DNA from: Parasporobacterium sp.
Lineage (GTDB): Bacteria > Bacillota > Clostridia > Lachnospirales > Lachnospiraceae
Assembly (NCBI GenBank): GCA_017515535.1
Contig: JAFWFQ010000031.1
Span: forward strand, 1 to 51,469
DNA: 51,469 bases
Direction: 5' to 3'
The notes under the pieces were generated by a model. The model was not told the origin of the DNA. It did not search any database and saw only the letters and a list, made by a program, of their open reading frames with translations. Shown here piece by piece: positions 1,428 to 28,017 of this stretch (position 1 is the stretch's first letter; each line of letters opens with the position of its first letter). The position numbers and the translations under genes are program-made.

Positions 1428-2510
1428 TTACAGGACTGTTTGAATCGTGCCGCCTCCGACGACGGTCTCCCCGTCATAAAGAACGACCGCCTGGCCTTTT
1501 GTGATCGCCCGCTGGGGCTCTTCAAAGTCGACCCGGATCGTATCTTCTCCGGTCTGGACGACGGTTGCCCATTGTTCTTTCTGGCGATAACGGACTTTGG
1601 CTTTCAGGCGCATCGGTTCTTTGATCTCCGGAACAGAGATCAGGTTAATATCCGATGCGGTCAGACTATTTGAAAAGAGATCCTCGTTTTTCCCTAAGAT
1701 GACCCGGTTTCCTTCCAGGTCGAGACGGCAGACGTAGACCGGCTCCGGAACGGCAAGTCCGAGGCCTTTTCTCTGGCCGATCGTATAGTGGATGATTCCC
1801 TTATGACGGCCCATGATATTTCCGCTTTGATCGACAAAGTCTCCTTCCGGAAATGTCCGGCCGGAATACTGCTCGATGAATGATGCATAATCTCCGTCCG
1901 GGACAAAACAGATATCCTGGCTGTCGCGTTTATCCGCATTTAGAAATCCCTGACTTTCCGCGATTTTCCGGACTTCCGATTTAGAATAGGTTCCAAGAGG
2001 AAAGCAGGTATGAGAAAGCTGTTCCTGTGTCAGGGAGTAGAGGACATAACTTTGATCTTTTGTTTCATCGACTGCTTTTTTCAGCTCATAACGTCCGGTG
2101 TCCGGATTCTTTTCGATCCGGGCATAATGACCCGTTACGAGACGGTCGAAAGACAGTTCCTTCGCTTTCAGGAATAACTGGTCAAATTTCAGATACCGGT
2201 TACAGTCAATACAGGGATTCGGAGTTGCCCCTGTCTCGTAGGCGTTTACAAACCGCTTGATCACACAGTCTTCGAACCGGCCGGTAAAATTGAATACATA
2301 AAACGGGATGCCCAGACGAAAGGCAACACTTCTTGCGTCTTCAGCATCATCAAGAGAACAGCAGGTACGGTCGCCAACCTTTGAAGGGTCGCTGTTTTCA
2401 AACAGTTTCATCATAACACCGGTACAGTCATAGCCGGCTTTTTTCATAAGATACGCGGAAACGGAAGAATCAACGCCGCCGCTCATTGCGATCAATGCTT
2501 TCTTGTTCAT
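1428..2510 (-). CDS. mnmA: tRNA 2-thiouridine(34) synthase MnmA
   Basis: Track ORF 1428..2516. It has the PP-loop SGGVDSS, CCSLDDAEDA and DSQDICF motifs. The second ATG (2510) has an AGGA about 5 nt upstream, while the ATG at 2516 has no spacer. Confidence 0.9.
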   Translation of the reverse strand: MNKKALIAMSGGVDSSVSAYLMKKAGYDCTGVMMKLFENSDPSKVGDRTCCSLDDAEDARSVAFRLGIPFYVFNFTGRFEDCVIKRFVNAYETGATPNPCIDCNRYLKFDQLFLKAKELSFDRLVTGHYARIEKNPDTGRYELKKAVDETKDQSYVLYSLTQEQLSHTCFPLGTYSKSEVRKIAESQGFLNADKRDSQDICFVPDGDYASFIEQYSGRTFPEGDFVDQSGNIMGRHKGIIHYTIGQRKGLGLAVPEPVYVCRLDLEGNRVILGKNEDLFSNSLTASDINLISVPEIKEPMRLKAKVRYRQKEQWATVVQTGEDTIRVDFEEPQRAITKGQAVVLYDGETVVGGGTIQTVL

Positions 2511-2512
2511 AA

Positions 2513-3907
2513 TCATCCTACTTTTTCATCTGTAACAAGATTTACCGCCCATTTTCTTGATTTTAACATAAAGAAACCAATAATACATTTTATGATTTCA
2601 ATTGCGTTTACCAGGATAAAGACAACGACGATCGGGAGATCTGTATACCGGGTTAGAACAAAGGCGGCCGGAACATAAGCGACCCAGATCAGGAAGCTGT
2701 CAAAGATAAACGTAATGATCGTTTTCCCTCCCGTCCGCAGAGTAAAGTAACAGCAGTGGGTATACGAAAAAAGCGGCAGGAAACAGGACGTGACATACAG
2801 GAAGCTTACCGCATAAGCTTTTACCCCTTCGGTCGTATTATATATATTTACGATCAGCGGGGCGATAAGGGCAAGGATTCCGCCGAGAACGATACACATG
2901 ACAAGAGAAAGCAGGATGATCTGCTTATCTTCTTTAATCGCATCTTCGATCTCGCCGGCACCGAGTTTCTGGCCGATCATGATCGAGATCGCGGCACCGG
3001 TCGCAAACAGAGCACTGAAAAAAAGATTGCTGATCGTCGAAGAAATATTGGTTGCGGAAACGATCTCTAAGCCGCGGACGGAATAACACTGGTTCTGCAT
3101 CGCCATCCCTGCAGACCATAGAACCTCATTTACGAGAAGCGGGGTTCCTTTTTTGGCAACTTCTTTGATCAGCTTTGCCGGAATTTTAAACGATTGATAG
3201 AGTCCGGCAAAAAACGGAAACTTATCTTTCCTGGAATGGGTATAGATGATCAGGATCACACATTCCACAAAACGGGCGATCACAGTCGCAATTGCGGCGC
3301 CTTCCGCTCCGAGCGCCGGCAGACCGAGTTTTCCGAAGATCAGGATATAATTCCCGACCAGATTGACCGCAACCGCGATCATGCTGGCTTTCATAGGAAA
3401 AACCGTATCGTTGGTTTCTCTCAGAGAACTTGCATAAACCTGCGACAGGGAAAACGGGAGAAGCTGGAGCATCATAATATGAAGGTAATTGAAGCTATGG
3501 GTAAACGTAGCCTCAAGGTCAAGCGCTTCGGTTCCTTCATGAAGGAACGCATTGATCAGCATTCTTCCGCCGAACAGGAAGACAAGCACAAAAAGGATCG
3601 TAGCGATTACTGCGACAAAAAGCTTGATCCGAATCGTATTCGTTACGCCTTGATTGTCCCGCTTTCCGTAAAACTGCGCCGTATAGATTCCGGCTCCTGC
3701 AAGACCTCCGAAAATACAGAGGTTAAAGACGAAGAGGAGCTGGTTTGCGATCGCAACACCGGACATCGGTTCCGTTCCGACCTGGCCGACCATGATATTG
3801 TCGAGAAGACTGACGAACATCGTGATCACATTCTGGAGAAGGACAGGAGCCATGACGGCAAAGACCCGTTTATAAAACTGTTTTGTCCCGATATAATCCT
3901 TGAGCAT
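2513..3907 (-). CDS. MATE family efflux transporter
   Basis: 464-aa 12-TM-like protein. The N-terminus (FYKRVFAVMAPVLLQNVITMFVSLLDNIMVGQVG) is typical of MATE/NorM-type exporters. Confidence 0.85.
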   Translation of the reverse strand: MLKDYIGTKQFYKRVFAVMAPVLLQNVITMFVSLLDNIMVGQVGTEPMSGVAIANQLLFVFNLCIFGGLAGAGIYTAQFYGKRDNQGVTNTIRIKLFVAVIATILFVLVFLFGGRMLINAFLHEGTEALDLEATFTHSFNYLHIMMLQLLPFSLSQVYASSLRETNDTVFPMKASMIAVAVNLVGNYILIFGKLGLPALGAEGAAIATVIARFVECVILIIYTHSRKDKFPFFAGLYQSFKIPAKLIKEVAKKGTPLLVNEVLWSAGMAMQNQCYSVRGLEIVSATNISSTISNLFFSALFATGAAISIMIGQKLGAGEIEDAIKEDKQIILLSLVMCIVLGGILALIAPLIVNIYNTTEGVKAYAVSFLYVTSCFLPLFSYTHCCYFTLRTGGKTIITFIFDSFLIWVAYVPAAFVLTRYTDLPIVVVFILVNAIEIIKCIIGFFMLKSRKWAVNLVTDEKVG

Positions 3908-4025
3908 GGTTTCAGTTATAACATAATAAAGAAAAAAAGCAACTGGAGATTATGCGCTTGATAACGTATAATAATATTACCCCGAAACGGGCTGTTTCAG
4001 GCGGATAAATCGTCAATTCTGATAA

Positions 4026-4054
4026 TTGAATGTATGCCCCGCCTATGTTATGCT
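4026..4054 (+). promoter_or_regulatory. candidate sigma-A promoter for glyA (TTGAAT-17-TATGCT)
   Basis: TTGAAT at 4026-4031, a 17-nt spacer, then TATGCT at 4049-4054, about 50 nt upstream of the glyA ATG. Pattern match only. Confidence 0.3.
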
Positions 4055-4104
4055 TTAATTCTCTAAAACATGAAATCTACAGCCAATAAGGAAGGACAAC
4101 ACCT

Positions 4105-5358
4105 ATGTATTCCTATAGCAAACTATTAAATGCAGATCCGGAAGTTGCGGCAGCGATCAGAGGAGAAGTTGACCGCGAAAATTCCCATCTGGAAATGATT
4201 GCCTCGGAAAACTTTGTCAGCGAGGCAGTTATGAGTGCACTTGGATCTCAGTTCACGAATAAATACGCGGAAGGATATCCGGGGGACCGCTATTATGGCG
4301 GCTGCCAGTATGCGGATATCGTTGAAAATCTTGCAAGAGACAGAGCAAAAAAACTGTTCGGATGTGAGTATGTCAATGTACAGCCCCATGCCGGAAGTCA
4401 GGCAAATACCGCAGTCCAGTTCGCGCTTTTGAAACCGGAGGATATGATCCTCGGAATGACATTAGATGCGGGCGGTCACTTAAGCCATGGATGCAAGGCA
4501 AATATTTCCGGTAAGTATTTTCAGGTCGCCGGATACGGTGTCGATGAAAACGGCTATATTGACTATGATGAGATCTTAAAGATCGCGAAGGAGACCAGAC
4601 CGAAACTGATCATTTCCGGAGCGAGTGCTTATCCCCGGAAAATCGACTTTCAGAAATTCCGTGAGATCGCGGACGAAGTCGGGGCATATCTGCTCGCTGA
4701 TATCGCGCATATCTCCGGTCTTGTTGTTGCCGGGGAACATATGAGCCCAATCCCGTATGCCCATGTGACCACAAGCACGACTCATAAAACACTTCGCGGT
4801 CCGCGTGGCGGAATGATCATGTCTTCGGATGCATTCGCGAAAGATCACAAGATCGACAAAGCGATCTTCCCGGGACTCCAGGGTGGTCCGCTTGTGCATG
4901 TTATCGCGGCAAAAGCTGTTTGTTACGGCGAGGCTCTGAAACCGGAATTTAAAACCTACGCAAAGAACGTGATCGCGAATGCACAGGCACTTTCAAGCGG
5001 ACTTATGGACCGGGGGATCAAGATCTTTACCGGAGGAACAGATAACCATCTGATGCTGGTTGATTTAAGACCGCTCGGTGTAAGCGGAAAAGAAGCAGAA
5101 GATGAACTTGACGAGGCAGGAATCACCTGCAATAAAAACGCGATCCCGAATGATACCTCTTCGAAGACAATTACTGGCGGAATCCGGTTAGGAACCGCAG
5201 CGCTTACGACCAGGGGACTCGGGACAGCAGATATGGAAACGATCGCGGAGGCGATCCGCCTTGTTGTCGTTGAGAGAACAGCGGCTTCAAAAGCGAAAGC
5301 AAAAGCCATGATCGGGGAATTGACAGAAAAATACCCACTTTATGAAAACGTGGAGTAG
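4105..5358 (+). CDS. glyA: serine hydroxymethyltransferase
   Basis: 417 aa with hallmark SHMT segments (ELIASENF-like [10 protein letters not shown], the [18 protein letters not shown]-lysine region, [12 protein letters not shown]). AAGGAAGGA RBS lies upstream. Confidence 0.95.
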
Positions 5359-5379
5359 CTTTGTCTGATACAGAGAAAT

Positions 5380-5409
5380 AACCGGCCGGAAGTGAGGAGC
5401 CGACCGGTT
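5380..5409 (+). other. stem-loop between glyA and purE (no U-tract)
   Basis: AACCGGCCGG (5380-5389) pairs with CCGACCGGTT (5400-5409) in 9 of 10 positions. It is followed directly by the purE SD AGGAGG (5411-5416). Confidence 0.4.
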
Positions 5410-5425
5410 CAGGAGGATGAATACA

Positions 5426-5920
5426 ATGAAAAAAGTCGGTATCGTTATGGGCAGCGACAGCGATTTACCTGTCGTTTCCAAAGCCATTGATACATTAAAA
5501 GAATTCGGCGTACCGTTCGAGGTACATATCTATTCCGCACACAGAACGCCAAAAGAAGCTGCCGCATTTGCGTCCGGAGCCAGAGAAAACGGCTTTGGTG
5601 CAATTATTGCAGCGGCCGGAATGGCGGCACATCTTGCGGGGGCAATTGCGGCTCAGACAACGATCCCGGTCATCGGGATCCCGTGCAGCAGCAGTAACCT
5701 CGAAGGACTTGATGCGCTGCTGTCGACGGTTCAAATGCCTTCCGGAATCCCGGTAGCGACCGTTGCGGTAAACGGTGCGGCGAATGCGGCGCTGCTTGCA
5801 ATCCAGATCCTGGGCGTAGAGGACGTATCTCTTGCGGAGAAACTGGATGCAAAAAGAGCGGCAGATGCCGCAAAGGTCCTTGCAAAAGATGCAGGGATAA
5901 TGGAAAAAATAGAATCTTAA
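5426..5920 (+). CDS. purE: 5-(carboxyamino)imidazole ribonucleotide mutase, class I PurE-like
   Basis: Track ORF 5417..5920. AGGAGG abuts the first ATG, so the second ATG (5426, MKKVGIVMGSDSD) is better spaced. Motifs GSDSD, SAHRTP and AGMAAHLAG match class I PurE. Confidence 0.9.
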   Translation: MKKVGIVMGSDSDLPVVSKAIDTLKEFGVPFEVHIYSAHRTPKEAAAFASGARENGFGAIIAAAGMAAHLAGAIAAQTTIPVIGIPCSSSNLEGLDALLSTVQMPSGIPVATVAVNGAANAALLAIQILGVEDVSLAEKLDAKRAADAAKVLAKDAGIMEKIES

Positions 5921-5931
5921 GAACTGCTTTT

Positions 5932-5964
5932 TTACGTCGGGACCCTAAGGTGTTCCCGACGTAA
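5932..5964 (+). other. perfect 11-bp stem-loop between purE and purF
   Basis: TTACGTCGGGA (5932-5942) and TCCCGACGTAA (5954-5964) flank an 11-nt loop. There is no downstream T-run on either strand. Confidence 0.4.
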
Positions 5965-5996
5965 ATCGTGAATAAACAGAAAAAGGAAAACAGATT

Positions 5997-7421
5997 ATGG
6001 GTGGATTTTTTGGAATTACATCAAAAGAAGATTGCTTGAACGAAGTTTTTTTCGGAGTGGATTACCATTCTCATCTCGGAACAAAGACCGGTGGAATTGC
6101 AGTATATGACAAGGAAATCGGACTTCAGCGCCAGATCCATAAGATCGTGAATTCTCCGTTCCGTACGAAGTTTGAGCATGTGTTCGAAGACATGCAGGGA
6201 ACTTCTGCGATCGGATGCATTAATGACGGGGATCCTCAGCCGCTGCTTGTCCGGTCCGGACTCGGAGTCTTTGCAATCTGCTTTATCGGCGTGATCAGCA
6301 ACGCGCAGGAGCTGATCGAAAAGCATATGTTTGAGGTCGGCGGCCATTACGAAGCGATGACCGGAGGAAAGATCAATACAACAGAACTGGTTGCAGCGCT
6401 GATCAACCAGAAGAAGTCATTTGCCGAAGGGATCCGTTACGCGCAGGGACTGATCGAGGGAACCGCCTCGATCCTGATCCTGAAAGAGGATGGTCATCTG
6501 ATCGCGGCAAGAGATTTTCTCGGACGGCTTCCTATTCTGATCGGAAAAGGACCGGAAGGACATGCAGTTTCTTTTGAATCCTTTGCGTACCAGAAGTTCG
6601 GCTTTGAGGATGAAAAGGAACTCGGACCTGCCGAAATCGTAGAGGTCACGCCGGATGAGATCATCCAGCTTGCGCCGCCCGAAAAGAAGAAACGGATCTG
6701 TGCCTTCCTTTGGAGCTATTATGGATATCCGACATCGACCTATGAAGGGGTCAATGTAGAAGTCATGCGTTACCGTAACGGCGCGATCATGGCCAGAAAT
6801 GACGCGGAGAAGAAAAACGCGGAAGACGTAGATTATGTCGGAGGTGTTCCGGATTCCGGAACTCCGCATGCGATCGGATATGCGAATGAGAGCGGAAAGA
6901 CTTTCGCAAGAGCATTTATCAAGTATACGCCGACCTGGTCGAGAAGTTTTATGCCGACCAACCAGAAGGCAAGAAATGAAGTTGCGAAAATGAAGCAGAT
7001 CCCGGTCAAGGAACTGATTCGTGATAAGAGCCTTCTTTTCGTAGATGACTCGATCGTAAGAGGAACGCAGCTTCAGGAAACCGTCGACTTTCTTTATGCG
7101 AACGGAGCAAAGGCTGTCCATATGAGAAGTGCGTGCCCGCCGCTGATGTATGCCTGCAAATACCTCAGTTTTACCAGAACACAGAGTGATCTTGAGTTGA
7201 TCACCAGAAGAGTGATCCTGGAACTTGAAGGGGAAGAGGGGCTGAACCATATTGAAGAATACAGCGACGGAAATACGGAAAGAGGAAAGAAGTTAAGAGA
7301 AACGATTTGTGAAAAATTCCATTTTGCTTCCCTGGAATTCCAGTCTTTGGACGGAATTATTGAAGCAATCGGAATCGATCCTTGTGAACTATGTACTTAT
7401 TGCTGGAGCGGAAAGGAATAA
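5997..7421 (+). CDS. purF: amidophosphoribosyltransferase-like protein (PurF family, atypical Ntn domain)
   Basis: 474 aa. The PRTase half is canonical (GVPDSGTPHAIGYA, LLFVDDSIVRGTQ) and Cys residues sit at the recalled Fe-S ligand positions (ICAF, YACKY, CTYC). The N-terminus reads MGGFFG instead of MCG. See finding. Confidence 0.85.
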   Translation: MGGFFGITSKEDCLNEVFFGVDYHSHLGTKTGGIAVYDKEIGLQRQIHKIVNSPFRTKFEHVFEDMQGTSAIGCINDGDPQPLLVRSGLGVFAICFIGVISNAQELIEKHMFEVGGHYEAMTGGKINTTELVAALINQKKSFAEGIRYAQGLIEGTASILILKEDGHLIAARDFLGRLPILIGKGPEGHAVSFESFAYQKFGFEDEKELGPAEIVEVTPDEIIQLAPPEKKKRICAFLWSYYGYPTSTYEGVNVEVMRYRNGAIMARNDAEKKNAEDVDYVGGVPDSGTPHAIGYANESGKTFARAFIKYTPTWSRSFMPTNQKARNEVAKMKQIPVKELIRDKSLLFVDDSIVRGTQLQETVDFLYANGAKAVHMRSACPPLMYACKYLSFTRTQSDLELITRRVILELEGEEGLNHIEEYSDGNTERGKKLRETICEKFHFASLEFQSLDGIIEAIGIDPCELCTYCWSGKE

Positions 7422-7424
7422 TCG

Positions 7425-8468
7425 ATGAATACTGAATCAAGATCGGAAGCTTATGCACAGGCCGGCGTTGATATCACGGCCGGATATAAAGCGGTAGAGC
7501 TGATGAAGCAGCATATCGCGAGAACCATGACAGCAGGGGTCTGTTCTGATGTCGGAGGGTTCGGAGGACTTTTTGAGTTGGACCTTACGGGGATCACCAA
7601 ACCGGTCCTGGTCTCCGGAACCGACGGAGTCGGAACAAAGCTTAAGCTGGCCTTTTTACTGGACAAACATGATACCGTCGGAATTGACTGTGTTGCGATG
7701 TGTGTCAATGATATTATTTGTGTCGGAGCGAAACCGCTGTTCTTTCTGGATTATATTGCCTGCGGTAAAAATGTCCCGGAGCGGATCGCCGAGATCGTAA
7801 AAGGCGTTGCGGAAGGCTGCGTCCAGTCCGGAGCAGCCCTGATCGGAGGGGAAACGGCGGAAATGCCGGGCTTCTATCCGGAAGATGAATACGACCTTGC
7901 CGGCTATAGCACGGGCGTTGTTGATAAGGAAAAGATTATAGACAATAAAACAATGAAGCCGGGAGATATCGTAGTTGCGCTTCCTTCAAGCGGCGTTCAC
8001 TCCAATGGATTCTCATTGGTCCGGAAGGTATTTGATGTGGAAAGATCCGATATCAAATCCCCTTGCGCGGAACTTGGAGGAAAATCGATCGGAGAGACGC
8101 TCCTTACTCCGACAAAAATCTATGTCAAACCGGTCCTTGCTTTACTGGATCAGGTTACGGTCAAAGGAATCTCCCATATCACCGGCGGCGGATTCTACGA
8201 GAATATCCCGCGGAGCATCCCGGACGGACTCGGGGCAAAGATAGAGAAGAAGGCGGTAAGGATCCTGCCGATCTTTGATCTTCTTGCAAAGACCGGAGGG
8301 ATCAGCGAACGTGATATGTTCAATACCTATAACATGGGTGTCGGCATGAGTATCGTTGTGCCGAAAGAAGAGGCGGACAAAGCAGTTGAAGTCCTGAAAG
8401 CAAACGGAGAGGATGCTTATATCATTGGTGAAATTGCTTCCTCCGGGACGAAGATCCAGATCAGCTAG
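7425..8468 (+). CDS. purM: phosphoribosylformylglycinamidine cyclo-ligase (AIR synthetase)
   Basis: 347 aa with [26 protein letters not shown] and GGETAEMPG motifs. Confidence 0.95.
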
Positions 8469-18084: not shown

Positions 18085-18982
18085 TTCTTTCTTCTATTGC
18101 CTTGGACAGGGATTCAAGGGAATCAAACGAAATAAAGTCTTTTTCCTTGCGTCGGTTGCAACGATCGCGGCCTGTGTCTTTATGGTTGGGATCCTTCTTG
18201 CAGTCATGATGAATATTAACTTTGTTTTGAAAGAAGCACAGGATTCCGTCAGCATCACTGTTTTCTTTGATGAGGATCTGAATGAAGCTGAAATCAAAGA
18301 GATCGGAAAACGGATCGAAGCCTGGGAGGAAGTTTCCAAAATCGAGTTTATCTCTGCAGAGGATGTATGGGCAACTTTCAAGGAAAGCTATTTTAAAGAT
18401 AATCCGGAACTGGCGGAAGGCTTTGCAGGTGACAATCCGCTTGCAAGTTCAGCCTCCTATGCTGTCTATTTTAATGATATTGATCAGCAGAAGACGATCG
18501 TAGACAGATTATCATCCCTGACCGGAGTCCGGAAGGTCAATAGTTCAGAAGTGACTGCAAACGCACTCTCGGATGTCGGAAAGATCGTCAGTATTATTTC
18601 CCTTGTCATCGGAGTCGTTTTGTTCTGCGTTTCCGTATTCCTGATCTCCAATACGATAACGACCGGTATTACGGTCCGTTCGGAAGAGATCAAGATCATG
18701 AAATACGTCGGAGCGACAGACTTCTTTGTCAAATCGCCGTTTGTATTTGAAGGTATTATTATCGGTCTGATCGGAGCGATCATTCCGCTTGTGATCCTCT
18801 TCTTTGTATACCGCTCCGCGATCAGCTATATCGTAAACCAGTTTAATACGATCTCTGATGCGTTCTCGATGATGCCGATCGCTCAGGTCTTTACGATCCT
18901 GGTTCCGGTCGCACTTATCCTCGGAGCGGGAATCGGTTTGATCGGAAGTATTATTGCTACGAATAAATATATTAAGGTTTGA
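18074..18982 (+). CDS. ftsX: FtsX-like permease
   Basis: 302 aa with one TM, a large extracytoplasmic loop, then three C-terminal TMs. Overlaps ftsE by 11 nt. Confidence 0.85.
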   Translation: MKGNSFFYCLGQGFKGIKRNKVFFLASVATIAACVFMVGILLAVMMNINFVLKEAQDSVSITVFFDEDLNEAEIKEIGKRIEAWEEVSKIEFISAEDVWATFKESYFKDNPELAEGFAGDNPLASSASYAVYFNDIDQQKTIVDRLSSLTGVRKVNSSEVTANALSDVGKIVSIISLVIGVVLFCVSVFLISNTITTGITVRSEEIKIMKYVGATDFFVKSPFVFEGIIIGLIGAIIPLVILFFVYRSAISYIVNQFNTISDAFSMMPIAQVFTILVPVALILGAGIGLIGSIIATNKYIKV

Positions 18983-18989
18983 TCAGCTT

Positions 18990-20396
18990 ATGAATAACAA
19001 CAATGGAAATATAAATCCAAATATGCAGCCGGGGAATACCCCGAATAATAATTCGAATTATAACGCAAACTATAACCCTAATTATAATCAGAACTATAGC
19101 CAGAACTATAATCAGAATTACAATTATGGTTATAACTACAACCAAAACTATGACCCGAACAATAACCCGAATGTTCCGCCCCAGGGAAGCCGGAACGGAA
19201 GTCCAAAGAAACCGAAAAGCCGGTTTGGAATCGGAATCCTTGTCGGAGTTCTGATCACGATAGCGGCCCTGTTAGTTGCAGCGGTATTAGGGGTCTTTGT
19301 GTTCTTTAACGGAATGAAGAAGGGGACTACGGATCTGAATTATCAGGAAAAACTGGATACGATCCAGAGTTATCTTGATATGTATTTCCTTTGGGACATT
19401 GATGAAGAAGCGATGGAAGATTCACTTGCAGAGGGACTTCTTGCCGGAACCGGGGATAAATACGCTCAGTATTATTCGAAAAAAGAATTCGATAATCTGA
19501 TGGAAGAGATCAGCGGAAGCTATGGAGGGATCGGAGTCAGCATTATTGAGAACGATGACGGAATGATCGAGGTCGTTCAGGTCTTTGAGGGATCGCCGGC
19601 AGAGGCAGCCGGAATCCAGGCGAAGGATATTATTATTGAGGCGGACGGAATCACGGAAATCAGAGACGTTGATCATCTTGTCGAACTGGTTCGGGGAGAA
19701 CCCGGAACGACGGTTGATCTTGTAGTCAAAAGAGACGATAAAGAAATCCCGGTTACCGTTGAGCGCCAGATCATTGAAATGGAACTGATCACTTATGAAA
19801 TGCTGGAGGACCATATCGGATATATCCGGCTTTCGGAATTTGAAACGATCGCAATAGAGCAGTTTAATCAGGCACTGGATGATCTTGAATCCCAGGGGAT
19901 GACTTCCCTGATCATCGATATCCGGGATAATCCGGGTGGAGATTATGATACCGTTATCGCGCTGGCAGACCGTGTTCTTCCGGAAGGAAAGATCACAACT
20001 GTAATTGATAAGAACGGAACAAGTTCTGTTGAGACCTCGGATGAGGAGCACCAGATCAATATCCCGATGGTCGTATTGATCAATGGGAACAGTGCAAGTG
20101 CATCCGAACTCTTCAGCGGAGCGATCAAGGACTACGGAATTGCCACGATGATTGGAGAAACAACGTTCGGAAAAGGAATCATCCAGAGTATTTACCGTCT
20201 TCCGGACGGCTCAGGAATGAAATTTACAACACAGGAATATCTGACCCCGAACGGCAACCATATTCACGAGATCGGTGTTTCCCCGGATATTGAAGTAGCG
20301 ATTCCGGAGGAAGCTTATGAGGATGGAGTTGTTACCAGAGAAGAAGATGTCCAGCTTCAGACAGCAATCGACTTTTTAAAGGACAAAACGAAGTAA
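18990..20396 (+). CDS. S41 family C-terminal processing peptidase with Asn/Tyr-rich N-terminal tail
   Basis: Track ORF opens at 18954 inside ftsX; the in-frame ATG is at 18990 (MNNNNGN). Has a TM, a PDZ (GGIGVSI...GSPAEAAGI) and an S41 core (IIDIRDNPGG, NGNSASASE, TFGKG). Confidence 0.85.
   Translation: MNNNNGNINPNMQPGNTPNNNSNYNANYNPNYNQNYSQNYNQNYNYGYNYNQNYDPNNNPNVPPQGSRNGSPKKPKSRFGIGILVGVLITIAALLVAAVLGVFVFFNGMKKGTTDLNYQEKLDTIQSYLDMYFLWDIDEEAMEDSLAEGLLAGTGDKYAQYYSKKEFDNLMEEISGSYGGIGVSIIENDDGMIEVVQVFEGSPAEAAGIQAKDIIIEADGITEIRDVDHLVELVRGEPGTTVDLVVKRDDKEIPVTVERQIIEMELITYEMLEDHIGYIRLSEFETIAIEQFNQALDDLESQGMTSLIIDIRDNPGGDYDTVIALADRVLPEGKITTVIDKNGTSSVETSDEEHQINIPMVVLINGNSASASELFSGAIKDYGIATMIGETTFGKGIIQSIYRLPDGSGMKFTTQEYLTPNGNHIHEIGVSPDIEVAIPEEAYEDGVVTREEDVQLQTAIDFLKDKTK
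18999..19170 (+). repeat. imperfect AAT/TAT/CAG-rich coding repeat (NYNQ-type)
   Basis: Repeated aattataa(c/t)c(a/c)gaactat-like units encode NYNANYNPNYNQNYSQNYNQNYNYGYNYNQNY. Confidence 0.6.
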
Positions 20397-20433: not shown

Positions 20434-21681
20434 ATGAAAAAATGGAAACGAATCGTACAGATCCTTCTTGTTGCAGTGATAGGGATCATGCTCGCCTTTC
20501 CGACTTTTGCAGATGATCTTTTTGATGCGAAGCAGAAGCAGAAAGAACTGGAACAGGAACTGTCGGATAGTGAGGCAAAGCTTGAGGAGCTGAAAGAGAA
20601 CGTGGAAAGCGCACAGCAGGCAGTCGATGAGATCGACAGCGAGATTGCTGCCGTTGAAGCGGTGATCAGTGATTATGAGCTCCAGAAAGAAAACCTTGAG
20701 ACTAAGATCGACGAACTCCAGAAACAGATCGATGAGAAACAGGTCGAGATCGAACATGAATACGATATGATGAGCAAACGGATCAAGTTCCTCTATGAGA
20801 ATCTGGGAAATTCGTATGTTGAAGCATTTCTGACCTCCGAGACCTTTTCCGATGCCCTGAATAAAGTCCAGTACCTGATCGAGCTTTCCGATTATGACAG
20901 AAAACAGATGGAGACACTGGAAAAACTTCAGAAAGGGATCGAGAAAGATCAGGCTGAAGTGGAAGAAGAAAAGGAAGGCGTTGAGTCTCTGATCAGTGCC
21001 CAGAATGACCAGAAAGATGTCCTGGACGGGATGCTCGCGGTCAAAGCGGAAGCACTTCAAACCGCGCAGGAGGCACAGGCAATCGCAGAAGAGCAGAACG
21101 CAGCAATCGCACAGATGCTCGAAGAGCAAAAAGAGACCGTTGATCAGCTTGTCGAGGAATATAACGAGCGTCTGAAAGAACAGCTGCGGGCACAGATGCA
21201 GGCGCAGGGCAGCGGTGTTGAACCCGAAGGAGAGATCATCTTTGCGCCGGGTGGTTATATCTGGCCGCTTCCATCCCCTTATTACTCGAACTATATTACT
21301 TCACGGTTTGGCTGGAGAGGCGATCCGTTCGGCGGTGGCTATGCGGACTTCCATGGCGGACTCGATATCGGAGCGCCGTGCAACACCCCGATCATGGCGG
21401 TTGCAGACGGAACTGTTATTATCTCTCAGGACGGCTGGAACGGCGGCTGCGGAAACTATACGGTTATTTACCATGGCGGTGGCGTCTATACCGAATACAT
21501 GCACCAGAATTATCGTGCGGTTTATGTCGGACAGGCTGTTTTGCAGGGTGAAGTCATCGGATATGTCGGAACAACAGGATCTTCGACCGGATACCATCTT
21601 CATATCGGATTTGTAATGTCGGATCATGGTTTCGATACCTCCTGCAGAGTCGATCCGGGACCAATCCTCGGTGCATACTAA
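20434..21681 (+). CDS. coiled-coil M23 (LytM) peptidoglycan endopeptidase, EnvC/PcsB-like partner of FtsEX
   Basis: 415 aa with a signal/anchor and about 230 aa of heptad-like E/Q/K-rich coiled coil. The M23 domain keeps intact metal ligands (HGGLD and YHLH). Confidence 0.85.
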   Translation: MKKWKRIVQILLVAVIGIMLAFPTFADDLFDAKQKQKELEQELSDSEAKLEELKENVESAQQAVDEIDSEIAAVEAVISDYELQKENLETKIDELQKQIDEKQVEIEHEYDMMSKRIKFLYENLGNSYVEAFLTSETFSDALNKVQYLIELSDYDRKQMETLEKLQKGIEKDQAEVEEEKEGVESLISAQNDQKDVLDGMLAVKAEALQTAQEAQAIAEEQNAAIAQMLEEQKETVDQLVEEYNERLKEQLRAQMQAQGSGVEPEGEIIFAPGGYIWPLPSPYYSNYITSRFGWRGDPFGGGYADFHGGLDIGAPCNTPIMAVADGTVIISQDGWNGGCGNYTVIYHGGGVYTEYMHQNYRAVYVGQAVLQGEVIGYVGTTGSSTGYHLHIGFVMSDHGFDTSCRVDPGPILGAY

Positions 21682-21717
21682 AGAGATTTTAAACTCAACT
21701 TAAACAATTGTATTACG

Positions 21718-21753
21718 ACACCTCCTGTATTTTACGGGAGGTGTTATTTTTAT
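21718..21753 (+). terminator. rho-independent terminator
   Basis: ACACCTCCTG (21718-21727) pairs with CGGGAGGTGT (21735-21744) over 10 bp including one G-U, and is followed by TATTTTTAT. Confidence 0.75.
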
Positions 21754-21870
21754 ACTGCTCAGTGAATTATAGTTCAGTATATGGCTGAATTATGATTGTC
21801 TTTACGAAACTTAAAACATCCTATATTCTGTGAATGACTTAAATATACTTCAAACACAATGAAAAGCAAC

Positions 21871-21879
21871 TGTTATTAT
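21871..21879 (+). promoter_or_regulatory. candidate extended -10 element (TGtTATTAT) for the HTH-ligase gene
   Basis: TGTTATTAT at 21871-21879. The best -35-like hexamer, TTCAAA at 21849-21854, has a poor 19-nt spacer. The predicted TSS falls on the ATACTGAACT repeat. Confidence 0.3.
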
Positions 21880-21916
21880 AAGAAATACTGAACTACGGTA
21901 TATGACGGGGGATGTT

Positions 21917-23758
21917 ATGGATTTTGGAGAAAGATTAAAACAATTTCTGGAAGAGAAAAAAATGACGATGAATTCCCTGGCCAATGAAACAGGGATCACG
22001 TACAACATGATCAAAAAGTATTGCAACATGGGTGCGGAACCAACGATTTCCTATGCAGCGAAGATCGCGGATGCGCTTGAGCTCTCCATTGATGAATTAA
22101 TGGGACACGAGGCAAAAACGAAAAAAAGCATGTTCCAGGAAGTATTTGAAGAGGATATGACCTATATCAAAGGATTTATGCGAAATGTACGTCGTTTTGC
22201 GGATCGTACTGCCGTGATCGATCCTCTTGCGGAGACAACGCTGACTTATACAGAGCTGAACCGGGATGTAAACCGGTTTGCGAATGCCCTGTCTGACCAT
22301 GGTGTTGTTTCGAAGGATGTTGTATTGTATCAGCTTCCGAACAGCATGGAATTTCTTCTTTGCTATTTAGCTCCGCAGAAACTCGGCGCCGTCAACAGTC
22401 CTGCAAACTATAACTTCTCCCCCGGAGAGACTGTTGTTTGCTTAAATACAAGCAAGCCGAAAGTATTTGTATATGATGCTGCTTTTAAAGATGCTTCCTT
22501 GAAAGCGTTGGAGATCGCAGAGACAAAACCGGAGATCGTTCTTATGGTTGGAGAAGGGGAACTTCCGGAAGGGCATGTTTCATTTGCAGAATTTATAAAA
22601 GGATATCCGGAAAGTGAACCGCTGACGTCCTATGTTCCGAATATGTATGACGAGGCTATGCGCCTTTATACTTCCGGAACGACCGGAAAGCCTAAGGGAG
22701 TTCCGATGTATCATGCAAATGAAGTCATGAGTGCGCATGATGTTATGATGCATTTCCCGATGAATCCAACCGATCGGACAATGAATACGACGCCCTGGTT
22801 CCACAGAGGCGGAATCCATTCGGGTGGACCTTGTCCGACATTGTATGCCGGCGGCTCCGTAGTCATAATGCGAAACTTCCAAAGCCTTTTGTCACTGAAA
22901 TATGTGGAAAAATATAAGATCACATTCCTGATCGGTGTTCCATCGATCATTAAGATGCTGGTCCGCCATCAGGAAAAGTATAAAGCCGATCTTTCAAGCC
23001 TGAAGGGGATCATTACAATGGGCGCTCCATTTGAGAGAGCAGACTGCCTTAAGGTCCATGAAGTTCTTACTCCGAATCTGTTTAATGGATACGGAACAAC
23101 GGAGACATTCTGGAATACATTCCTTCGACCATATGATCTTCCGGAAATGGCTGGAACAGCAGGAAAATCCTGTACGGATGATGATGTTCGCGTTGTTAAA
23201 TATGTGGAAGGGAAAAAGAGCGAGCCGGATGAACTTGTTGCTATGGATGAAAGCGAGACCGGAGAGGTTATTATCCGGACTCCGAAGTCTTCCTACTGCT
23301 ATTATAATAATCCGGAGGAGGACGCAAACAAGTTCTACAAAGGCTGGATGTATACAGGCGATCTTGCCACATGGGATAAAAACCAATTCATTACAATTTC
23401 CGGACGGAAAGACGATATGATCATTTCGGGTGGTGAAAACATTTACCCTCCGATCATTGAAGAAGCCGTGAATACACATCCGAAAGTTGCGGCATGCGCA
23501 GTTACAGGTGTTCCGGATGCTGTGCGCGGGGAGGCGGTTGTTGCATATGTTGTTCCGGAAGATGATTCCCTGACGATTGGAGACCTTGTTGATCATTGCA
23601 ACGCGTCAGATCTTCTTTCCGGATACAAGAGGCCGCGTTATTACCGGATTGTAAAAGAGCTTCCGATGACGGCAACCGGAAAGCTTCAGCAATACCTTGT
23701 TAAGGAAATGGCCCTTACGGATATGGAAAACGGACTCTTAAAACTTGCGATGAAATAA
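21917..23758 (+). CDS. XRE-family HTH domain fused to an ANL-superfamily acyl-CoA/AMP ligase
   Basis: Track ORF 21902..23758. GGGGGA precedes the ATG at 21917. The N-terminal ~63 aa are Cro/C1-type HTH. The remainder has LYTSGTTGKPKGV, GYGTTE, YTGD, GRKDDMIISGGENIYP and MTATGK. Confidence 0.8.
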   Translation: MDFGERLKQFLEEKKMTMNSLANETGITYNMIKKYCNMGAEPTISYAAKIADALELSIDELMGHEAKTKKSMFQEVFEEDMTYIKGFMRNVRRFADRTAVIDPLAETTLTYTELNRDVNRFANALSDHGVVSKDVVLYQLPNSMEFLLCYLAPQKLGAVNSPANYNFSPGETVVCLNTSKPKVFVYDAAFKDASLKALEIAETKPEIVLMVGEGELPEGHVSFAEFIKGYPESEPLTSYVPNMYDEAMRLYTSGTTGKPKGVPMYHANEVMSAHDVMMHFPMNPTDRTMNTTPWFHRGGIHSGGPCPTLYAGGSVVIMRNFQSLLSLKYVEKYKITFLIGVPSIIKMLVRHQEKYKADLSSLKGIITMGAPFERADCLKVHEVLTPNLFNGYGTTETFWNTFLRPYDLPEMAGTAGKSCTDDDVRVVKYVEGKKSEPDELVAMDESETGEVIIRTPKSSYCYYNNPEEDANKFYKGWMYTGDLATWDKNQFITISGRKDDMIISGGENIYPPIIEEAVNTHPKVAACAVTGVPDAVRGEAVVAYVVPEDDSLTIGDLVDHCNASDLLSGYKRPRYYRIVKELPMTATGKLQQYLVKEMALTDMENGLLKLAMK

Positions 23759-23768
23759 TCAGGCGGTA

Positions 23769-23796
23769 TTGTCGCGCACCGGTTCCATGCTATAAT
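23769..23796 (+). promoter_or_regulatory. candidate promoter for the thioesterase gene (TTGTCG-16-TGcTATAAT)
   Basis: TTGTCG at 23769-23774, a 16-nt spacer and an extended -10 TGCTATAAT at 23788-23796, within the 96-nt gap after the ligase stop. Confidence 0.45.
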
Positions 23797-23854
23797 ATGT
23801 GATATCCGCGGAGGAAAGCTCCGCAGGAAATAGTCATACTTTGAGGAACAAAAG

Positions 23855-24274
23855 ATGGAAAGATATTGCAGACAGGTTTTTTACTATGAAACGGATAAGA
23901 TGTCAATCGTTCACAACGCCAATTACCTTCGGATCTTCGAAGAGGCACGGTTGTTTTTTATGGAACAGGCGGGAATCCCGTATCCGGTGATCGAAGAGGC
24001 GGGGATCCTGATCCCGGTCGTTGATGCTTATGTCCGTTATCATCAGACAATGAAATACGGAGACGAATTTTACGTGGATGTTCAGCTGACCGAATTCAAC
24101 GGAGCAAGAATGAAATATATATATGAGATCCATCGTAAGGGAGATGAGGCGCTGATCGCATCCGGGTTTTCCAGCCATTGTTTTATTGATGAAATAAAGC
24201 GGCTTCCACTCAACGTAAAAAGACGTCTGCCGGAAGCATATGAAAAAATGATTGCTGCATTGTCAGAAGAATAA
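23855..24274 (+). CDS. hotdog-fold acyl-CoA thioesterase (YbgC/4HBT type)
   Basis: 139 aa. VFYYETDKMSIVHNANYLRIFEEAR matches the YbgC-type N-terminal motif with its catalytic Asp. Confidence 0.8.
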   Translation: MERYCRQVFYYETDKMSIVHNANYLRIFEEARLFFMEQAGIPYPVIEEAGILIPVVDAYVRYHQTMKYGDEFYVDVQLTEFNGARMKYIYEIHRKGDEALIASGFSSHCFIDEIKRLPLNVKRRLPEAYEKMIAALSEE

Positions 24275-24294
24275 GGAATCGTGATTGAGACAAT

Positions 24295-24320
24295 AAAAGA
24301 GACCTGAAAAGGTCTCTTTT
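24295..24320. terminator. bidirectional rho-independent terminator
   Basis: AAAAGAGACC tgaaaa GGTCTCTTTT forms a perfect stem with A-run/T-run flanks. It lies between convergent genes ending at 24274 (+) and 24339 (-). Confidence 0.75.
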
Positions 24321-24338
24321 CTACTGTTCTGAAATCCA

Positions 24339-25004
24339 TCAGCAATAATGCGGCCAGGGATCACTGTTCTCATTGCCGGCCCAACCGGTGGAGGAGGAAC
24401 TGTCAAATTGCCACATCCCGTACTGAATGACCGGACCCCAGTTCAATTCGAAAAGTTTCCAGCCATCTTTGCATTTGCGAAGTTTCATGATGTATCTTCC
24501 GATATCCGGCATCGCAGGGCACATCTCTCCGGCATTTCCAAAAGCTTCCCCCATCATAGTCCAACCAAGATCAAGGAAATAAGCAGCAGCAGTATCCTTG
24601 CTAAGAGGAACGATATACGGAGTCGAAAGAGTATGAACCCCTTGTTTTTTTCGCTGAAGTGTCCGCATACGTTCCATCATATCGAATTGGTCTTGAAATC
24701 CTCGATAGCCAGGTACCGGAATCATAACATCGCACAAAAGGTCGTTTGCGTCTTTTTGAAGTGCACGGCTTTCAAATACAGAAGGGTCACAGGTGCGAAT
24801 TGCGTCTGTCCAGAGAGCAGACCGATTCCGGATATCACAGAGATCTTCCGGAGACAAAAGATCTCCGCTTCCTGTAAAAAGTGACTGTCTGAGTTTTCTC
24901 TTTATCATCTCTTTCGCCTGCGGAGGTGTCATCGGATTTGCACTGAGCGCAGCGAGCAAAACCGGCTTAGAAGAACAAACAGGAGATACGTTCTCATTGC
25001 TCAA
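24339..25004 (-). CDS. NTF2/SnoaL-like fold protein (hypothetical); start uncertain
   Basis: 221-codon ORF with a TTG start per the track; alternative ATG codons lie further in (MTPPQ.., MIKRK..). The C-terminal half (HTLSTPYIVPLSKDTAAAYF...GRYIMKLRKCKDGWKLFELNWGPV) resembles SnoaL_4/NTF2-like domains. A terminator lies just downstream. Confidence 0.5.
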   Translation of the reverse strand: MSNENVSPVCSSKPVLLAALSANPMTPPQAKEMIKRKLRQSLFTGSGDLLSPEDLCDIRNRSALWTDAIRTCDPSVFESRALQKDANDLLCDVMIPVPGYRGFQDQFDMMERMRTLQRKKQGVHTLSTPYIVPLSKDTAAAYFLDLGWTMMGEAFGNAGEMCPAMPDIGRYIMKLRKCKDGWKLFELNWGPVIQYGMWQFDSSSSTGWAGNENSDPWPHYC

Positions 25005-25575: not shown

Positions 25576-28017
25576 TCAAGGCTGTGGTGGTGCTTCACCC
25601 GGAGCACCGCCTTCACCGCCAGGCATTCCGCCCGGAGGCATTTCTCCAGGTGGCATTCCGCCGGGACCGCCGGGGCCGCCCATCATGCCTTGCATTTCCA
25701 TTTCAATATATTTGTCACTGATCGTCATAGTACCGTCTTCCGCAACATCAAGCCATCCGACCAGACCGAATGCAACATCTGTGATCACGGCGCCGCTTGC
25801 AGGTTCCTCCTGTGTTGCGCCGATAATGTAGTAATTCTGTCCTTCAAAGGAGAAGTCAGAGTATTTGCCCATACATTCGTTCCGGTATGTCTGACCGATC
25901 ACCCAGTCTTTGGAATCAACCATTCCGACTGATCCGCCGCTGGTAAGGTCTCCGGCTTCTTTGGATGTTCCGTCGTATTCTTTTCCATCGACATACAGTT
26001 TTGCTCCGTTGGTCAGATTGATCGTTCCGTTATTGACCAGTCCTTTGATATAACAGTCTTCATCTATATTCCAGGTTGCACCTTCTTCCAAGGTCACCAG
26101 GACATTCGCGCCAGCCATGATCTTATTGATCATATGAGAGATGATATAGTACTCGTTCATCGTAAATTCATTGATCTGGATAAACGCTGCTTTTGATTCG
26201 TCAGTCGTTTCTTTTCCGTCTTCGTCCAAAAGAGTGTATTTTACGGTACAAGATTCACCACCATTCGGGGCGATTCCCTCGCCATATTTTTCAGCAAGTT
26301 TGTTCAGGAACTCTACCGCTTCTTTTGAATAAGTAAGACCATGAACCGCTGAAGTGGATGTGATTGCGCCATTCAGGGTGACATCTGTTCCGATATTGAC
26401 CATCAGGCCGCCGGCTGTCGTATCTTTTCCGGTTCCGGAACCATTCAGGATATCGCCGGTATATTCAACCGGAGTTCCGTCAATATCTGTTTCAAGGCTT
26501 AAGGAGGTATTGTATGCACCGCCTTCCTGAGGGTTTACAAAACCGGGCTCATTCGGATCTGAAAATCCAGAAGAAAATGTTGGCATGCCCCAAGCCTCTC
26601 CGTTCCATTTATGGAAACCGGCAGAACCATCAGTATCACCACCTGCACCGGAAGTTCCGTATCCGTCATCATCATCCATCATCTGGAAAATAATCCCGGA
26701 ATTTGGATTCAGTTCTGCACCGGAGATCGTATAGTCTGAGGCCTGTGCGCCACGGACAAGGATGACTGCTTCCTCGGTATTCCATACAGAGCCTTTATCC
26801 AGGATCACTTCTTCTGCGCCCTGATGATCCATAACACCAAATACCGAATTGACAACCGTATCTTTCGCATCTCCTTCATAGGTGAAAACAGCTTCGTCTT
26901 TACCCATGTTCGCAGCGGTAAGCCCGTTTGCAGAAGGACCATAATAAGTCGGGCCGGCACCGGTCAGGATCGTTGCGTAAGTTGTTCCGTCGAAGGTAGT
27001 TCCAAAGAAGTTCTCATAGGAACTACCAATATTGTATGTTCCGTATCCGGAACCGTAATTTCTTTCATATCCGAAGAGGGCAGCGCCTCCGTTCATTGAA
27101 TCTGAACTGTCATTTCCGGTTGGATCTGTTCCGTCATAGTTTGAGATCTTCAAAGTTGAATTGATAACGTTGACGGTCGGAGTAGAGCAGTCGTCTGTGG
27201 AAATGACTGCCCAGGAACCGGATTCAATTGTTGAATCTGCTACGGTAAAGGAACTGTTCGTTCCGAGAACATTGGAAGCTCGTACGCCTCCGTAGATACC
27301 GAGGATCCATGGAGGGGAGAGCATGAATGCCTGAGCAGCGGTGCTTGCATAACCCTCATATGCTTCTGTCAGAGGGTTACTGCCGGCTGTATAGATTTTA
27401 GAATCTGTCATGACTGCATCCGCATAAGCATCAACGATAACACCATCACGGCCGAATCCGTCTGTCTTGATTGAAATGTTCTCCATGTTCAGAGTTGTTT
27501 TTGTATTCTCTCCGCCGGTTGCGGTTACAACAGTTCCAAGTGCAGTAAAGTCATTTGCATTCTTGCCGTCAGAATTGTCGGAAAAAGCAAGCGAGACGTC
27601 TTTCATCTCTACGTTCGTATCCGTATCTGTACCGACAACAGCCAGATAACCGGTGTTGGTTGCTTCCTTGTCATTGATCTCATCTCCGAGCTCTGAGGAA
27701 ACATTGACGTTATTGATCTTAACAATATCCCCATCCGCGATTGCCGTATCTTTCAGGTTTCCGCTGATTTCCGTACCCTTGACCAGGGAACCGAGAATAA
27801 AGCTGCTGCTTACGCCTTTTTCCGCCCATGCAGGAATAATCGATCCTGTATAGGTAACTTCATCATTGGCTGATAATTGAATCATCCCGGTTGTTGTAAA
27901 AGCAGAGCCGGAATCTTCTCCTGGAGATGTATTCCCGCAGGCTGCAAGAGAAAACGCAAGAACGGCTGCAGCCGAAATCGCGAAAATCCGCTTCAGTTGT
28001 TTGTTTCGTGTTTTCAT
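25576..28017 (-). CDS. large surface lipoprotein, possibly beta-helix-like, with Gly/Pro/Met-rich C-terminal tail
   Basis: 813 aa. Signal peptide with lipobox (AFSLAAC), GGGAGGAG RBS, a Gly/Thr/Asn/Asp-rich body, and a tail ending MQGMMGGPGGPGGMPPGEMPPGGMPGGEGGAPGEAPPQP. Confidence 0.8.
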   Translation of the reverse strand: MKTRNKQLKRIFAISAAAVLAFSLAACGNTSPGEDSGSAFTTTGMIQLSANDEVTYTGSIIPAWAEKGVSSSFILGSLVKGTEISGNLKDTAIADGDIVKINNVNVSSELGDEINDKEATNTGYLAVVGTDTDTNVEMKDVSLAFSDNSDGKNANDFTALGTVVTATGGENTKTTLNMENISIKTDGFGRDGVIVDAYADAVMTDSKIYTAGSNPLTEAYEGYASTAAQAFMLSPPWILGIYGGVRASNVLGTNSSFTVADSTIESGSWAVISTDDCSTPTVNVINSTLKISNYDGTDPTGNDSSDSMNGGAALFGYERNYGSGYGTYNIGSSYENFFGTTFDGTTYATILTGAGPTYYGPSANGLTAANMGKDEAVFTYEGDAKDTVVNSVFGVMDHQGAEEVILDKGSVWNTEEAVILVRGAQASDYTISGAELNPNSGIIFQMMDDDDGYGTSGAGGDTDGSAGFHKWNGEAWGMPTFSSGFSDPNEPGFVNPQEGGAYNTSLSLETDIDGTPVEYTGDILNGSGTGKDTTAGGLMVNIGTDVTLNGAITSTSAVHGLTYSKEAVEFLNKLAEKYGEGIAPNGGESCTVKYTLLDEDGKETTDESKAAFIQINEFTMNEYYIISHMINKIMAGANVLVTLEEGATWNIDEDCYIKGLVNNGTINLTNGAKLYVDGKEYDGTSKEAGDLTSGGSVGMVDSKDWVIGQTYRNECMGKYSDFSFEGQNYYIIGATQEEPASGAVITDVAFGLVGWLDVAEDGTMTISDKYIEMEMQGMMGGPGGPGGMPPGEMPPGGMPGGEGGAPGEAPPQP

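Follow-up and report, generated by a model that had tools for sequence, protein, structure and literature searches.

What does a DNA-binding domain do at the front of a complete acyl-coenzyme A (acyl-CoA) ligase? The question is raised by a gene at 21917-23758 on the forward strand of contig JAFWFQ010000031.1 (GenBank assembly GCA_017515535.1) from Parasporobacterium sp., a member of the Lachnospiraceae; the whole stretch of 51,469 nucleotides was analyzed and is called the window. The original prediction, made from the sequence of this stretch, had described one uninterrupted 613-aa frame in which a Cro/C1-type helix-turn-helix (HTH) domain, a short Lys-rich linker, and a full ligase of the ANL superfamily follow one another. 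From our comparative analysis, the product of this gene is probably an uncharacterized trigger enzyme, that is, a competent ANL acyl-CoA (or acyl-carrier) ligase which would bind and repress its own promoter through the HTH. In addition to what had been predicted, we describe operators at the promoter, a co-transcribed thioesterase gene, and a link to fatty-acid-synthesis operons.

The HTH-ligase fusion and its spread

A search of 5.8 billion proteins returned more than 110 independent clusters at 90% identity, of 610-629 aa and 65-88% identity, with the HTH and the ligase in one frame; their named members are called just "AMP-binding protein" in NCBI. Among species-representative genomes, 37 fused loci were found in at least 36 species genomes, mostly metagenome-assembled genomes from rumen and gut, belonging to the Lachnospiraceae (Parasporobacterium), the Anaerovoracaceae (Lentihominibacter, Mogibacterium, and Copromorpha), the Oscillospiraceae, and unclassified Clostridia. 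As the single frame recurs in over 110 clusters and 37 genome loci, it is no assembly artifact. The mean identity among 30 fused sequences is 64% in the HTH and 76-80% in the ligase, and the pairwise ratio of nonsynonymous to synonymous substitution rates (dN/dS) is 0.02-0.24 in the HTH and 0.02-0.07 in the ligase; by these ratios both domains are under strong purifying selection. The number of clusters and loci, together with the selection acting on the HTH, therefore bears out the claim of a genuine in-frame fusion.

The frame is open without interruption over 21902-23758 (618 aa) on the forward strand, and the start was placed at ATG 21917, which yields the 613 aa that had been predicted, because homologues support it and because a Shine-Dalgarno sequence (GGGGGA, 21907-21912) lies 4 nt 5' of it. 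The internal ATG at 22130 (M72) had been said to have no Shine-Dalgarno sequence within range, and indeed the nearest GAGG lies 17 nt upstream. M72-F73 fall within the unfused orthologues, whose starts lie at least 10 residues further upstream, and M72 is therefore no relic start codon. A word-indexed search with the HTH by itself returned six short proteins, which are contig-end fragments or a 99-aa remnant retaining ligase residues, and an exhaustive phmmer search with the HTH returned fragments of the family and multi-HTH proteins of about 30% identity, with no close stand-alone XRE relative or donor among them. A Rosetta-stone arrangement was also considered and rejected, since no separate HTH gene was found 5' of the unfused orthologues and the small open reading frames there are spurious.

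Both halves of the protein are recognized by curated Pfam profiles. In the N-terminal part, HTH_26 matches residues 6-66 with 42 bits (cutoff 22) and HTH_3 matches residues 7-61 with 39.3 bits (cutoff 23), in agreement with the earlier reading of residues 1-63 as a Cro/C1 HTH, and the AlphaFold2 (AF2) model places a five-helix bundle at 3-13, 18-25, 29-36, 44-54, and 58-62 with a predicted local distance difference test score (pLDDT) of 83-91; by profile and by predicted helices, this domain is of the XRE/Cro-C1 type. The recognition helix region, TGITYNMIKKYC, is near-invariant across fused homologues. The predicted Lys-rich linker was recovered as HEAKTKKS, where the block of residues 61-70 has a lower pLDDT (68) and the alignment of the unfused orthologues begins (residue ~61-72). 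Beyond it, AMP-binding (PF00501) matches residues 88-463 (E = 1.8e-69) and AMP-binding_C (PF13193) matches residues 514-589 (E = 6e-20). Every core motif quoted in the original prediction was located, namely YTSGTTGKPKG at 250-260, GYGTTE at 391-396, YTGD at 479-482, the hinge GRKDDMIISGGENIYP at 496-511, and TATGK at 585-589, and all five (A3, A5, A7, the A8 hinge, and the A10 Lys) are invariant in the 30 fused homologues, which by domain and motif places the protein in the ANL superfamily. As one chain combines a DNA-binding domain with an apparently intact enzyme, the architecture and the integrity of the motifs agree with what is expected of a trigger enzyme.

Over the whole chain, the mean pLDDT of the AF2 model is 79, and the model consists of the XRE bundle (3-62), the linker (63-71), and a standard two-domain ANL fold. 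The top Foldseek matches are all ANL enzymes (probability 1.00), none of which reach over the HTH. Sequence and fold searches of the PDB gave no chain spanning the HTH and the ligase; the matches were generic ANL acyl-/aryl-CoA ligases of about 25% identity, so the substrate is not readable from a close structure. In NCBIfam, no equivalog was above its cutoff, the best match, at 374.5 bits for a cutoff of 476, being the PRK06187 subfamily of fatty-acid-CoA ligases.

A palindromic operator array upstream of the fused genes

When the 260 nt upstream of all fused genes were lined up, a 14-bp palindrome, TGAAYTATARTTCA, was found in two to four phased copies per fused-gene promoter. With a position weight matrix (PWM) trained on these same regions, boxes are present at 31 of the 32 fused loci, whose genomic surroundings are unrelated. 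At ≥13 bits, there are 61 matches in 8,320 nt upstream of fused genes (31/32 loci), 1 in 7,920 nt upstream of unfused genes, and 4 in 656,833 nt elsewhere; at ≥17 bits, the respective numbers are 34, 0, and 0, and none of the 24 unfused loci has a box at ≥15 bits. Neighboring boxes are spaced by 20-23 bp and outer boxes by 41-42 bp, which corresponds to two and four helical turns. In the fetched loci the exact palindrome is confined to the 200 nt upstream of fused genes, and in the 51-kb window it occurs once, as box O1 (Table 1), where the tandem pattern of O1, nine nucleotides, and a further half-site is unique as well; for either pattern, 0 of 100 shuffles gave a match. The genome of Parasporobacterium paucivorans and that of a relative were fetched after the PWM had been built, and both carry the same boxes before their fused genes (at 9918 and 9971 of our locus L064 in P. 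paucivorans). The near-invariance of the recognition helix matches the invariant operator. Taken as comparative evidence, a palindrome array linked exclusively to fused genes makes this HTH a strong candidate for the domain that binds the operator.

The region 21751-21905, which had been singled out in the original prediction for electrophoretic mobility shift assays, turned out to hold a conserved palindromic operator array that overlaps the promoter (Table 1). The geometry of the promoter was taken from an alignment of eight upstream regions of the window's clade, in which TTTAC(G/A)-17-TAT(G/C)(C/T)T is conserved; the -10 of the clade is TATGCT, and that of the window is TATTCT. In this clade, O3 would lie at about +3 to +16, and related loci have TTCACTATTGTTCA, TGAACAATAGTGTA, or TTAATTATGATTCA at the same position. 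O4 pairs with the right half of O1 through an 11-nt inverted repeat (I2), and ACTGAAYTA is aligned at O4 in the window, L001, L002, and L005. At the Anaerovoracaceae-type loci, a third box fills the spacer between the -35 and -10 of TTGCCT-17-TATGAT, a position that would plainly be repressive. Upstream, the strong predicted terminator of the M23-peptidase gene sets the fused gene apart from the cell-division genes before it, as a transcription unit of its own by this reading of the sequence. An Rfam scan of 21600-24400 gave no riboswitch or leader RNA match at E ≤ 0.1.

Table 1. Coordinates of the fused gene, its control region, and its partner gene in the window
Feature	Position	Strand	Basis
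Predicted intrinsic terminator of the upstream M23-peptidase gene	21717-21745	+	13-bp stem with 6 GC pairs, then T run; inverted repeat I1
Putative operator O1, TGAATTATAGTTCA, perfect match to TGAAYTATARTTCA	21763-21776		Columns invariant in 8-locus alignment; equivalent box in 31/32 fused loci
Putative operator O2, TGAATTATGATTGT, left half-site perfect, 23 bp from O1, abuts -35	21786-21799		PWM 13.2 bits; conserved in L001-L007
Inferred sigma-70-type promoter: -35 TTTACG (21801-21806), 17-nt spacer, -10 TATTCT (21824-21829)	21801-21829	+	Conservation only
Operator-like box O3, TTAAATATACTTCA, 3 mismatches, 9-10 nt 3' of -10, over predicted transcription start	21839-21852		Alignment
Degenerate box O4, TGAACTACGGTATA, left half-site ACTGAAC conserved, adjoins Shine-Dalgarno sequence	21889-21902		Inverted repeat I2 and alignment
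XRE/Cro-C1 HTH domain, residues 1-66	21917-22114	+	Pfam, AF2 helices, conservation, dN/dS
Lys-rich linker, residues ~63-71, HEAKTKKS, 8-9 residues	22115-22129	+	Low pLDDT; starts of unfused alignment
ANL N-terminal adenylation domain; A3 YTSGTTGKPKG, A5 GYGTTE, A7 YTGD, A8 hinge GRKDD	22130-23416	+	Pfam, motif conservation
ANL C-terminal subdomain with catalytic Lys589 (TATGK), and stop codon	23417-23758	+	Pfam AMP-binding_C; invariant in family
Promoter-like site TTGTCG-16-TGnTATAAT between ligase and thioesterase	23769-23796	+	10/12 matches, extended -10; TG-n-TATAAT conserved in L001, L002, L005
YbgC/FadM-family 4HBT acyl-CoA thioesterase	23855-24274	+	Pfam 4HBT_2 E = 5e-23; TIGR00051 78.7 bits against cutoff 68.7

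Several loci show variants of the fused gene and its boxes. L015 has two complete fused HTH-ligase paralogues in tandem (165-2012 and 2062-3939; 71% identical), each with a promoter and an operator box of its own (136 and 2063, respectively), followed by a thioesterase gene. The 99-aa remnant (P0122, L062 289-613) consists of the HTH and about 25 first ligase residues before a stop, with an AAA_14/DUF4143 gene after it; an operator-like box of 14.4 bits, TGAAATATAGTTTA, is retained 25 nt before it, and the remnant is probably a deletion derivative. A divergent fused relative (P0149, L063 2654-4180), 48% identical, has an intact recognition helix and degenerate ANL motifs (YETDVTGTLAG for the P-loop and HTGY for YTGD), is without the C-terminal subdomain, and has no canonical operator upstream. 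It could be either a pseudo-enzyme regulator or a decaying copy; as it stands on a single contig of ~5x coverage without an operator, we do not rely on it as proof of the former.

The thioesterase partner and the links to fatty-acid synthesis

A thioesterase gene lies directly 3' of the ligase in 27 loci. In most loci outside the window's clade, the thioesterase gene overlaps the ligase gene or starts 0-9 nt after it and is translationally coupled to it; the clade of the window has a gap of 80-97 nt. The promoter-like site within this gap (Table 1) is a possible internal promoter in the window's clade, which may uncouple expression of the thioesterase from autorepression. The thioesterase is the sole constant neighbor, the rest of the surroundings varying by lineage, and gene order indicates that the ligase-thioesterase cassette moves as a unit. 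Other recurrent neighbors (SpoIVA, ProC, rubrerythrin, transporters, and an AraC-type gene) differ from lineage to lineage and were set aside as unrelated.

Unfused paralogues of the ligase, which share 71-73% identity with the window protein and, in the ligase domain, 82% with the fused copies of the same genomes, end acpP-fabK-fabD-fabG-fabF-fabZ-fabF2 operons, sometimes with a thioesterase gene after them (L031-L035 and L053, about 100-7700). More distant unfused orthologues (52-56% identity) often come directly after a fabF2-like gene, and in two loci (L014 and L029, 74-6000) such a fab operon and the fused gene are transcribed divergently. Fused and unfused copies occur together in some genomes (L016 with L031, and L017 with L032). 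At the fab operons of the unfused paralogues (L031-L033), no operator of the TGAAYTATARTTCA type was found, and no fab operon is present in the 51-kb window, where 32-44 kb is devoted to polysaccharide biosynthesis and 4-16 kb to purine biosynthesis. In a neighbor-joining tree without support values, the unfused fab-linked paralogues fall inside the fused clade; this placement, which we take as a lead only, could reflect loss of the HTH after duplication or gene conversion.

Further features of the fab operons were noted. The acpP-fabK-...-fabF2 operon has no fabH in the sequence examined, and the score of its second FabF, 476, stays under the fabF equivalog cutoff of 493.75; this protein could serve the ligase as a dedicated partner in priming or condensation. 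The intergenic region between acpP and the fused gene in L014 (5783-6000) has a separate palindrome, TTAGCCAGGCTAA, closer to acpP. We take it to resemble a FapR-type box, and it suggests that the fab operon in L014 has its own regulator, distinct from the HTH-ligase.

In P. paucivorans (FQYT01000018.1), an unfused ANL gene of 548 aa (L064 8193-9839) lies immediately upstream of the fused gene. Its product is ~25% identical to the fused protein, with MbcS/acetate-CoA ligase as its best NCBIfam match, and the gene is preceded (L064 7990-8200) by the TTGACG-17-TATAGT promoter that the fused gene has as well, where boxes lie at 8007 and 8059. This MbcS-like gene is the first candidate for a regulon member besides the fused gene. 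In S. aureus, MbcS supplies short branched acyl-CoA primers for type II fatty-acid synthesis from exogenous acids (PMC10026030, PMC11167679). Because the unfused paralogues stand in fab operons and the MbcS-like gene has the same boxes, we consider a short-, branched-, or medium-chain fatty acid entering type II fatty-acid synthesis the probable substrate of the fused ligase.

A proposed trigger enzyme, its rivals, and known systems

In the model that we favor, the XRE-type HTH would bind, presumably as a dimer, the TGAAYTATARTTCA operators, which follow one another at about two helical turns along its own promoter; they abut the -35 and cover either the spacer between -35 and -10 or the transcription start. 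The protein would thereby repress its own two-gene cassette of ligase and YbgC/FadM thioesterase, and in at least one lineage the same boxes would also put an MbcS-like short-chain acyl-CoA synthetase gene under its control. Occupancy of the active site by acid and ATP, acyl-AMP, or acyl-CoA would alter the geometry of the dimer or of the HTH and relieve repression, such that the enzyme would be made when its substrate is present; a coupling of this kind between ligand state and DNA binding is plausible. More tentatively, and as a possibility that we hold to be less likely than not, the protein may be the ANL counterpart of BirA, in which the large rotation of the C-terminal domain during the catalytic cycle or occupancy by acyl-AMP or acyl-CoA is passed via the 8-residue linker to the HTH. 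One polypeptide would then sense and activate a short-, branched-, or medium-chain fatty acid of gut or rumen and set the expression of itself and of the MbcS-like synthetase.

Several observations count against autorepression by a substrate-sensing ligase. The promoter of the window is weak, with 8/12 consensus matches, and was missed by a consensus scan, and O3 and O4 of the window are degenerate. Both O1 and O2 precede the -35 (O2 centered near -43), where activators bind as well, so the sign of regulation is uncertain in the window's clade and an activating component is possible. It would seem futile to pair a ligase with an acyl-CoA thioesterase. Direct control of fatty-acid synthesis was considered and is unsupported, since fab operons in the same genomes (L031 and L032) are without the operator. 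The PWM is circular in being trained on the upstream regions that it scores, which the exact-pattern tests and the hold-out genome partly remove, and the assignment of the operator to the fused HTH was drawn from their co-occurrence.

The HTH may have a simpler role, although we regard it as unlikely, namely a ligand-independent negative feedback that buffers a potentially harmful ligase/thioesterase pair draining ATP and CoA. The confinement of the operators essentially to the gene's own promoter would suit such feedback, as would the short linker and the lack of a dedicated sensor domain, whereas in the cited characterized enzyme-regulator fusions the enzyme or enzyme-derived domain is the sensor (PMC5397151, PMC3602430), and the boxes before a second ligase gene in P. 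paucivorans look like pathway control. We give still less credence to co-repression in the manner of BirA, in which the acyl-adenylate-bound form would repress when the CoA or acyl carrier protein acceptor is scarce, or to a dual control with activation from O1/O2 at low and repression from O3/O4 at high concentration. Lambda CI acts in this dual manner at PRM, activating at low and repressing at high concentration. The center of O2, ~43 bp upstream of the predicted start in the window's clade, together with the weak promoter and a further box over the start, would fit an alternative of this kind, and BirA offers the precedent of an adenylate as corepressor (PMC5397151), but the strongest boxes of the Anaerovoracaceae-type loci are O1 and the spacer-filling box, which is a purely repressive layout.

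That the ligase domain has become a non-catalytic, BzdR-like sensor, with catalysis left to unfused paralogues, seems very improbable. Some genomes do have a fused and an unfused copy, as noted above, and P0149 has degenerate A3 and A7 motifs and no C-terminal subdomain beside a preserved recognition helix; yet P0149 may be decaying, and in the 30 fused sequences the catalytic motifs including Lys589 are invariant, with a ligase dN/dS as low as that given above. Hardly any weight is left for a vestigial HTH, or for an annotation or assembly artifact with palindromes bound by an unrelated global regulator. The bare NCBI name and the six short stand-alone HTH matches might be read in that way, but these matches are contig-end fragments or the truncated remnant with ligase residues, the frame is intact throughout the clusters with the HTH under purifying selection, and the boxes follow fused genes into unrelated contexts and are missing from unfused ones at ≥15 bits. 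A regulator of anti-phage defense (CapH-type) was also considered and rejected, as PADLOC gave weak generic HTH matches (≤28 bits, residues 1-78) and the neighbors are housekeeping genes.

The original prediction knew of no characterized member, and a full-text literature search as well as PDB sequence and fold searches likewise gave no description of the HTH-ANL architecture. Enzyme-regulator fusions such as BirA, NadR, PutA, and RbkR have been termed "a few" (PMC5397151). BirA, the archetypal trigger enzyme, similarly couples its own catalysis to transcription via a palindromic operator in one protein (PMC5397151, PMC4016012). It combines a biotin protein ligase (BPL)/class II aminoacyl-tRNA synthetase-like fold with a winged HTH, in contrast to ANL with XRE here, and represses a biosynthetic operon with an adenylate corepressor, whereas the main target here would be the enzyme's own gene; Pfam gives neither the BPL_LplA_LipB fold nor a winged HTH in the fused protein, so membership of the BirA family was rejected and BirA is taken as an analogue. 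BzdR/BoxR of Azoarcus share the order of N-terminal XRE HTH, linker, and enzyme-derived acyl-CoA-sensing domain, and repress a pathway that starts with a CoA ligase (PMC3602430). The sensor of BzdR is shikimate-kinase-like and without activity, whereas the fused protein has a whole ANL ligase in which all catalytic motifs are preserved; by analogy it appears closer to what that study calls the "missing link" stage, at which a DNA-binding domain is recruited by an enzyme (PMC3602430). With the ANL ligase as its C-terminal part and no shikimate-kinase-like (SKI-like) domain in Pfam, it was not assigned to the BzdR subfamily.

The sole ANL ligase that our literature search found reported as a transcription factor is FadD1 of Pseudomonas aeruginosa, a fatty acyl-CoA ligase reported to bind promoters as a cis-2-decenoic acid receptor, with the fatty acid modulating its affinity for DNA (PMC12754631). 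FadD1 is without a canonical DNA-binding domain, a leucine-zipper-like motif being invoked instead, and is described as a global regulator, in contrast to the XRE HTH and defined local operator described here. MbcS, which activates short branched acids, is likewise an ANL ligase, and the MbcS-like gene of P. paucivorans bears the same boxes, but MbcS is without a DNA-binding domain and the fused protein has only the ~25% identity to its MbcS-like neighbor given above. FapR, FadR, FabT, and DesT link fatty-acyl or malonyl thioester pools to transcription, and FapR does so with an HTH joined to a hot-dog thioesterase-like fold. These differ in being non-catalytic sensors of other folds with fab/fad regulons, and no TGAAYTATARTTCA operator stands at the fab operons examined.

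With the fused family, the small class of trigger enzymes would gain a member, and none of BirA, NadR, PutA, and RbkR uses the very large ANL superfamily. It would be a live intermediate, with both halves intact and a defined operator, of the step that was reconstructed synthetically for BzdR (PMC3602430). As a tractable system, the family lends itself to the question of whether DNA binding can report on ANL domain alternation, and it provides a compact candidate biosensor for carboxylic acids; should the proposed sensing prove true, it would be a natural one-protein fatty-acid biosensor by which anaerobic Clostridia tie the supply of exogenous acids to how their fatty-acid synthesis is primed. 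The family further draws attention to an unstudied cassette of ligase and thioesterase, connected with fatty-acid synthesis, in Lachnospiraceae and Anaerovoracaceae that are abundant in rumen and gut; P. paucivorans is a cultured carrier.

Two other genes of the window were noted. At 25576-28017 on the reverse strand, a predicted secreted or lipoprotein-like protein of 813 aa with no Pfam match has a Gly/Pro/Met-rich tail ending in GGPGGPGGMPPGEMPPGGMPGGEGGAPGEAPPQP. At 18954-20396 on the forward strand, an S41 C-terminal processing peptidase with an unusually long Asn/Tyr-rich low-complexity N-terminal segment (~70 residues) before its membrane anchor is encoded within an ftsE-ftsX-S41-M23 (PcsB/EnvC-like) cell-division cluster.

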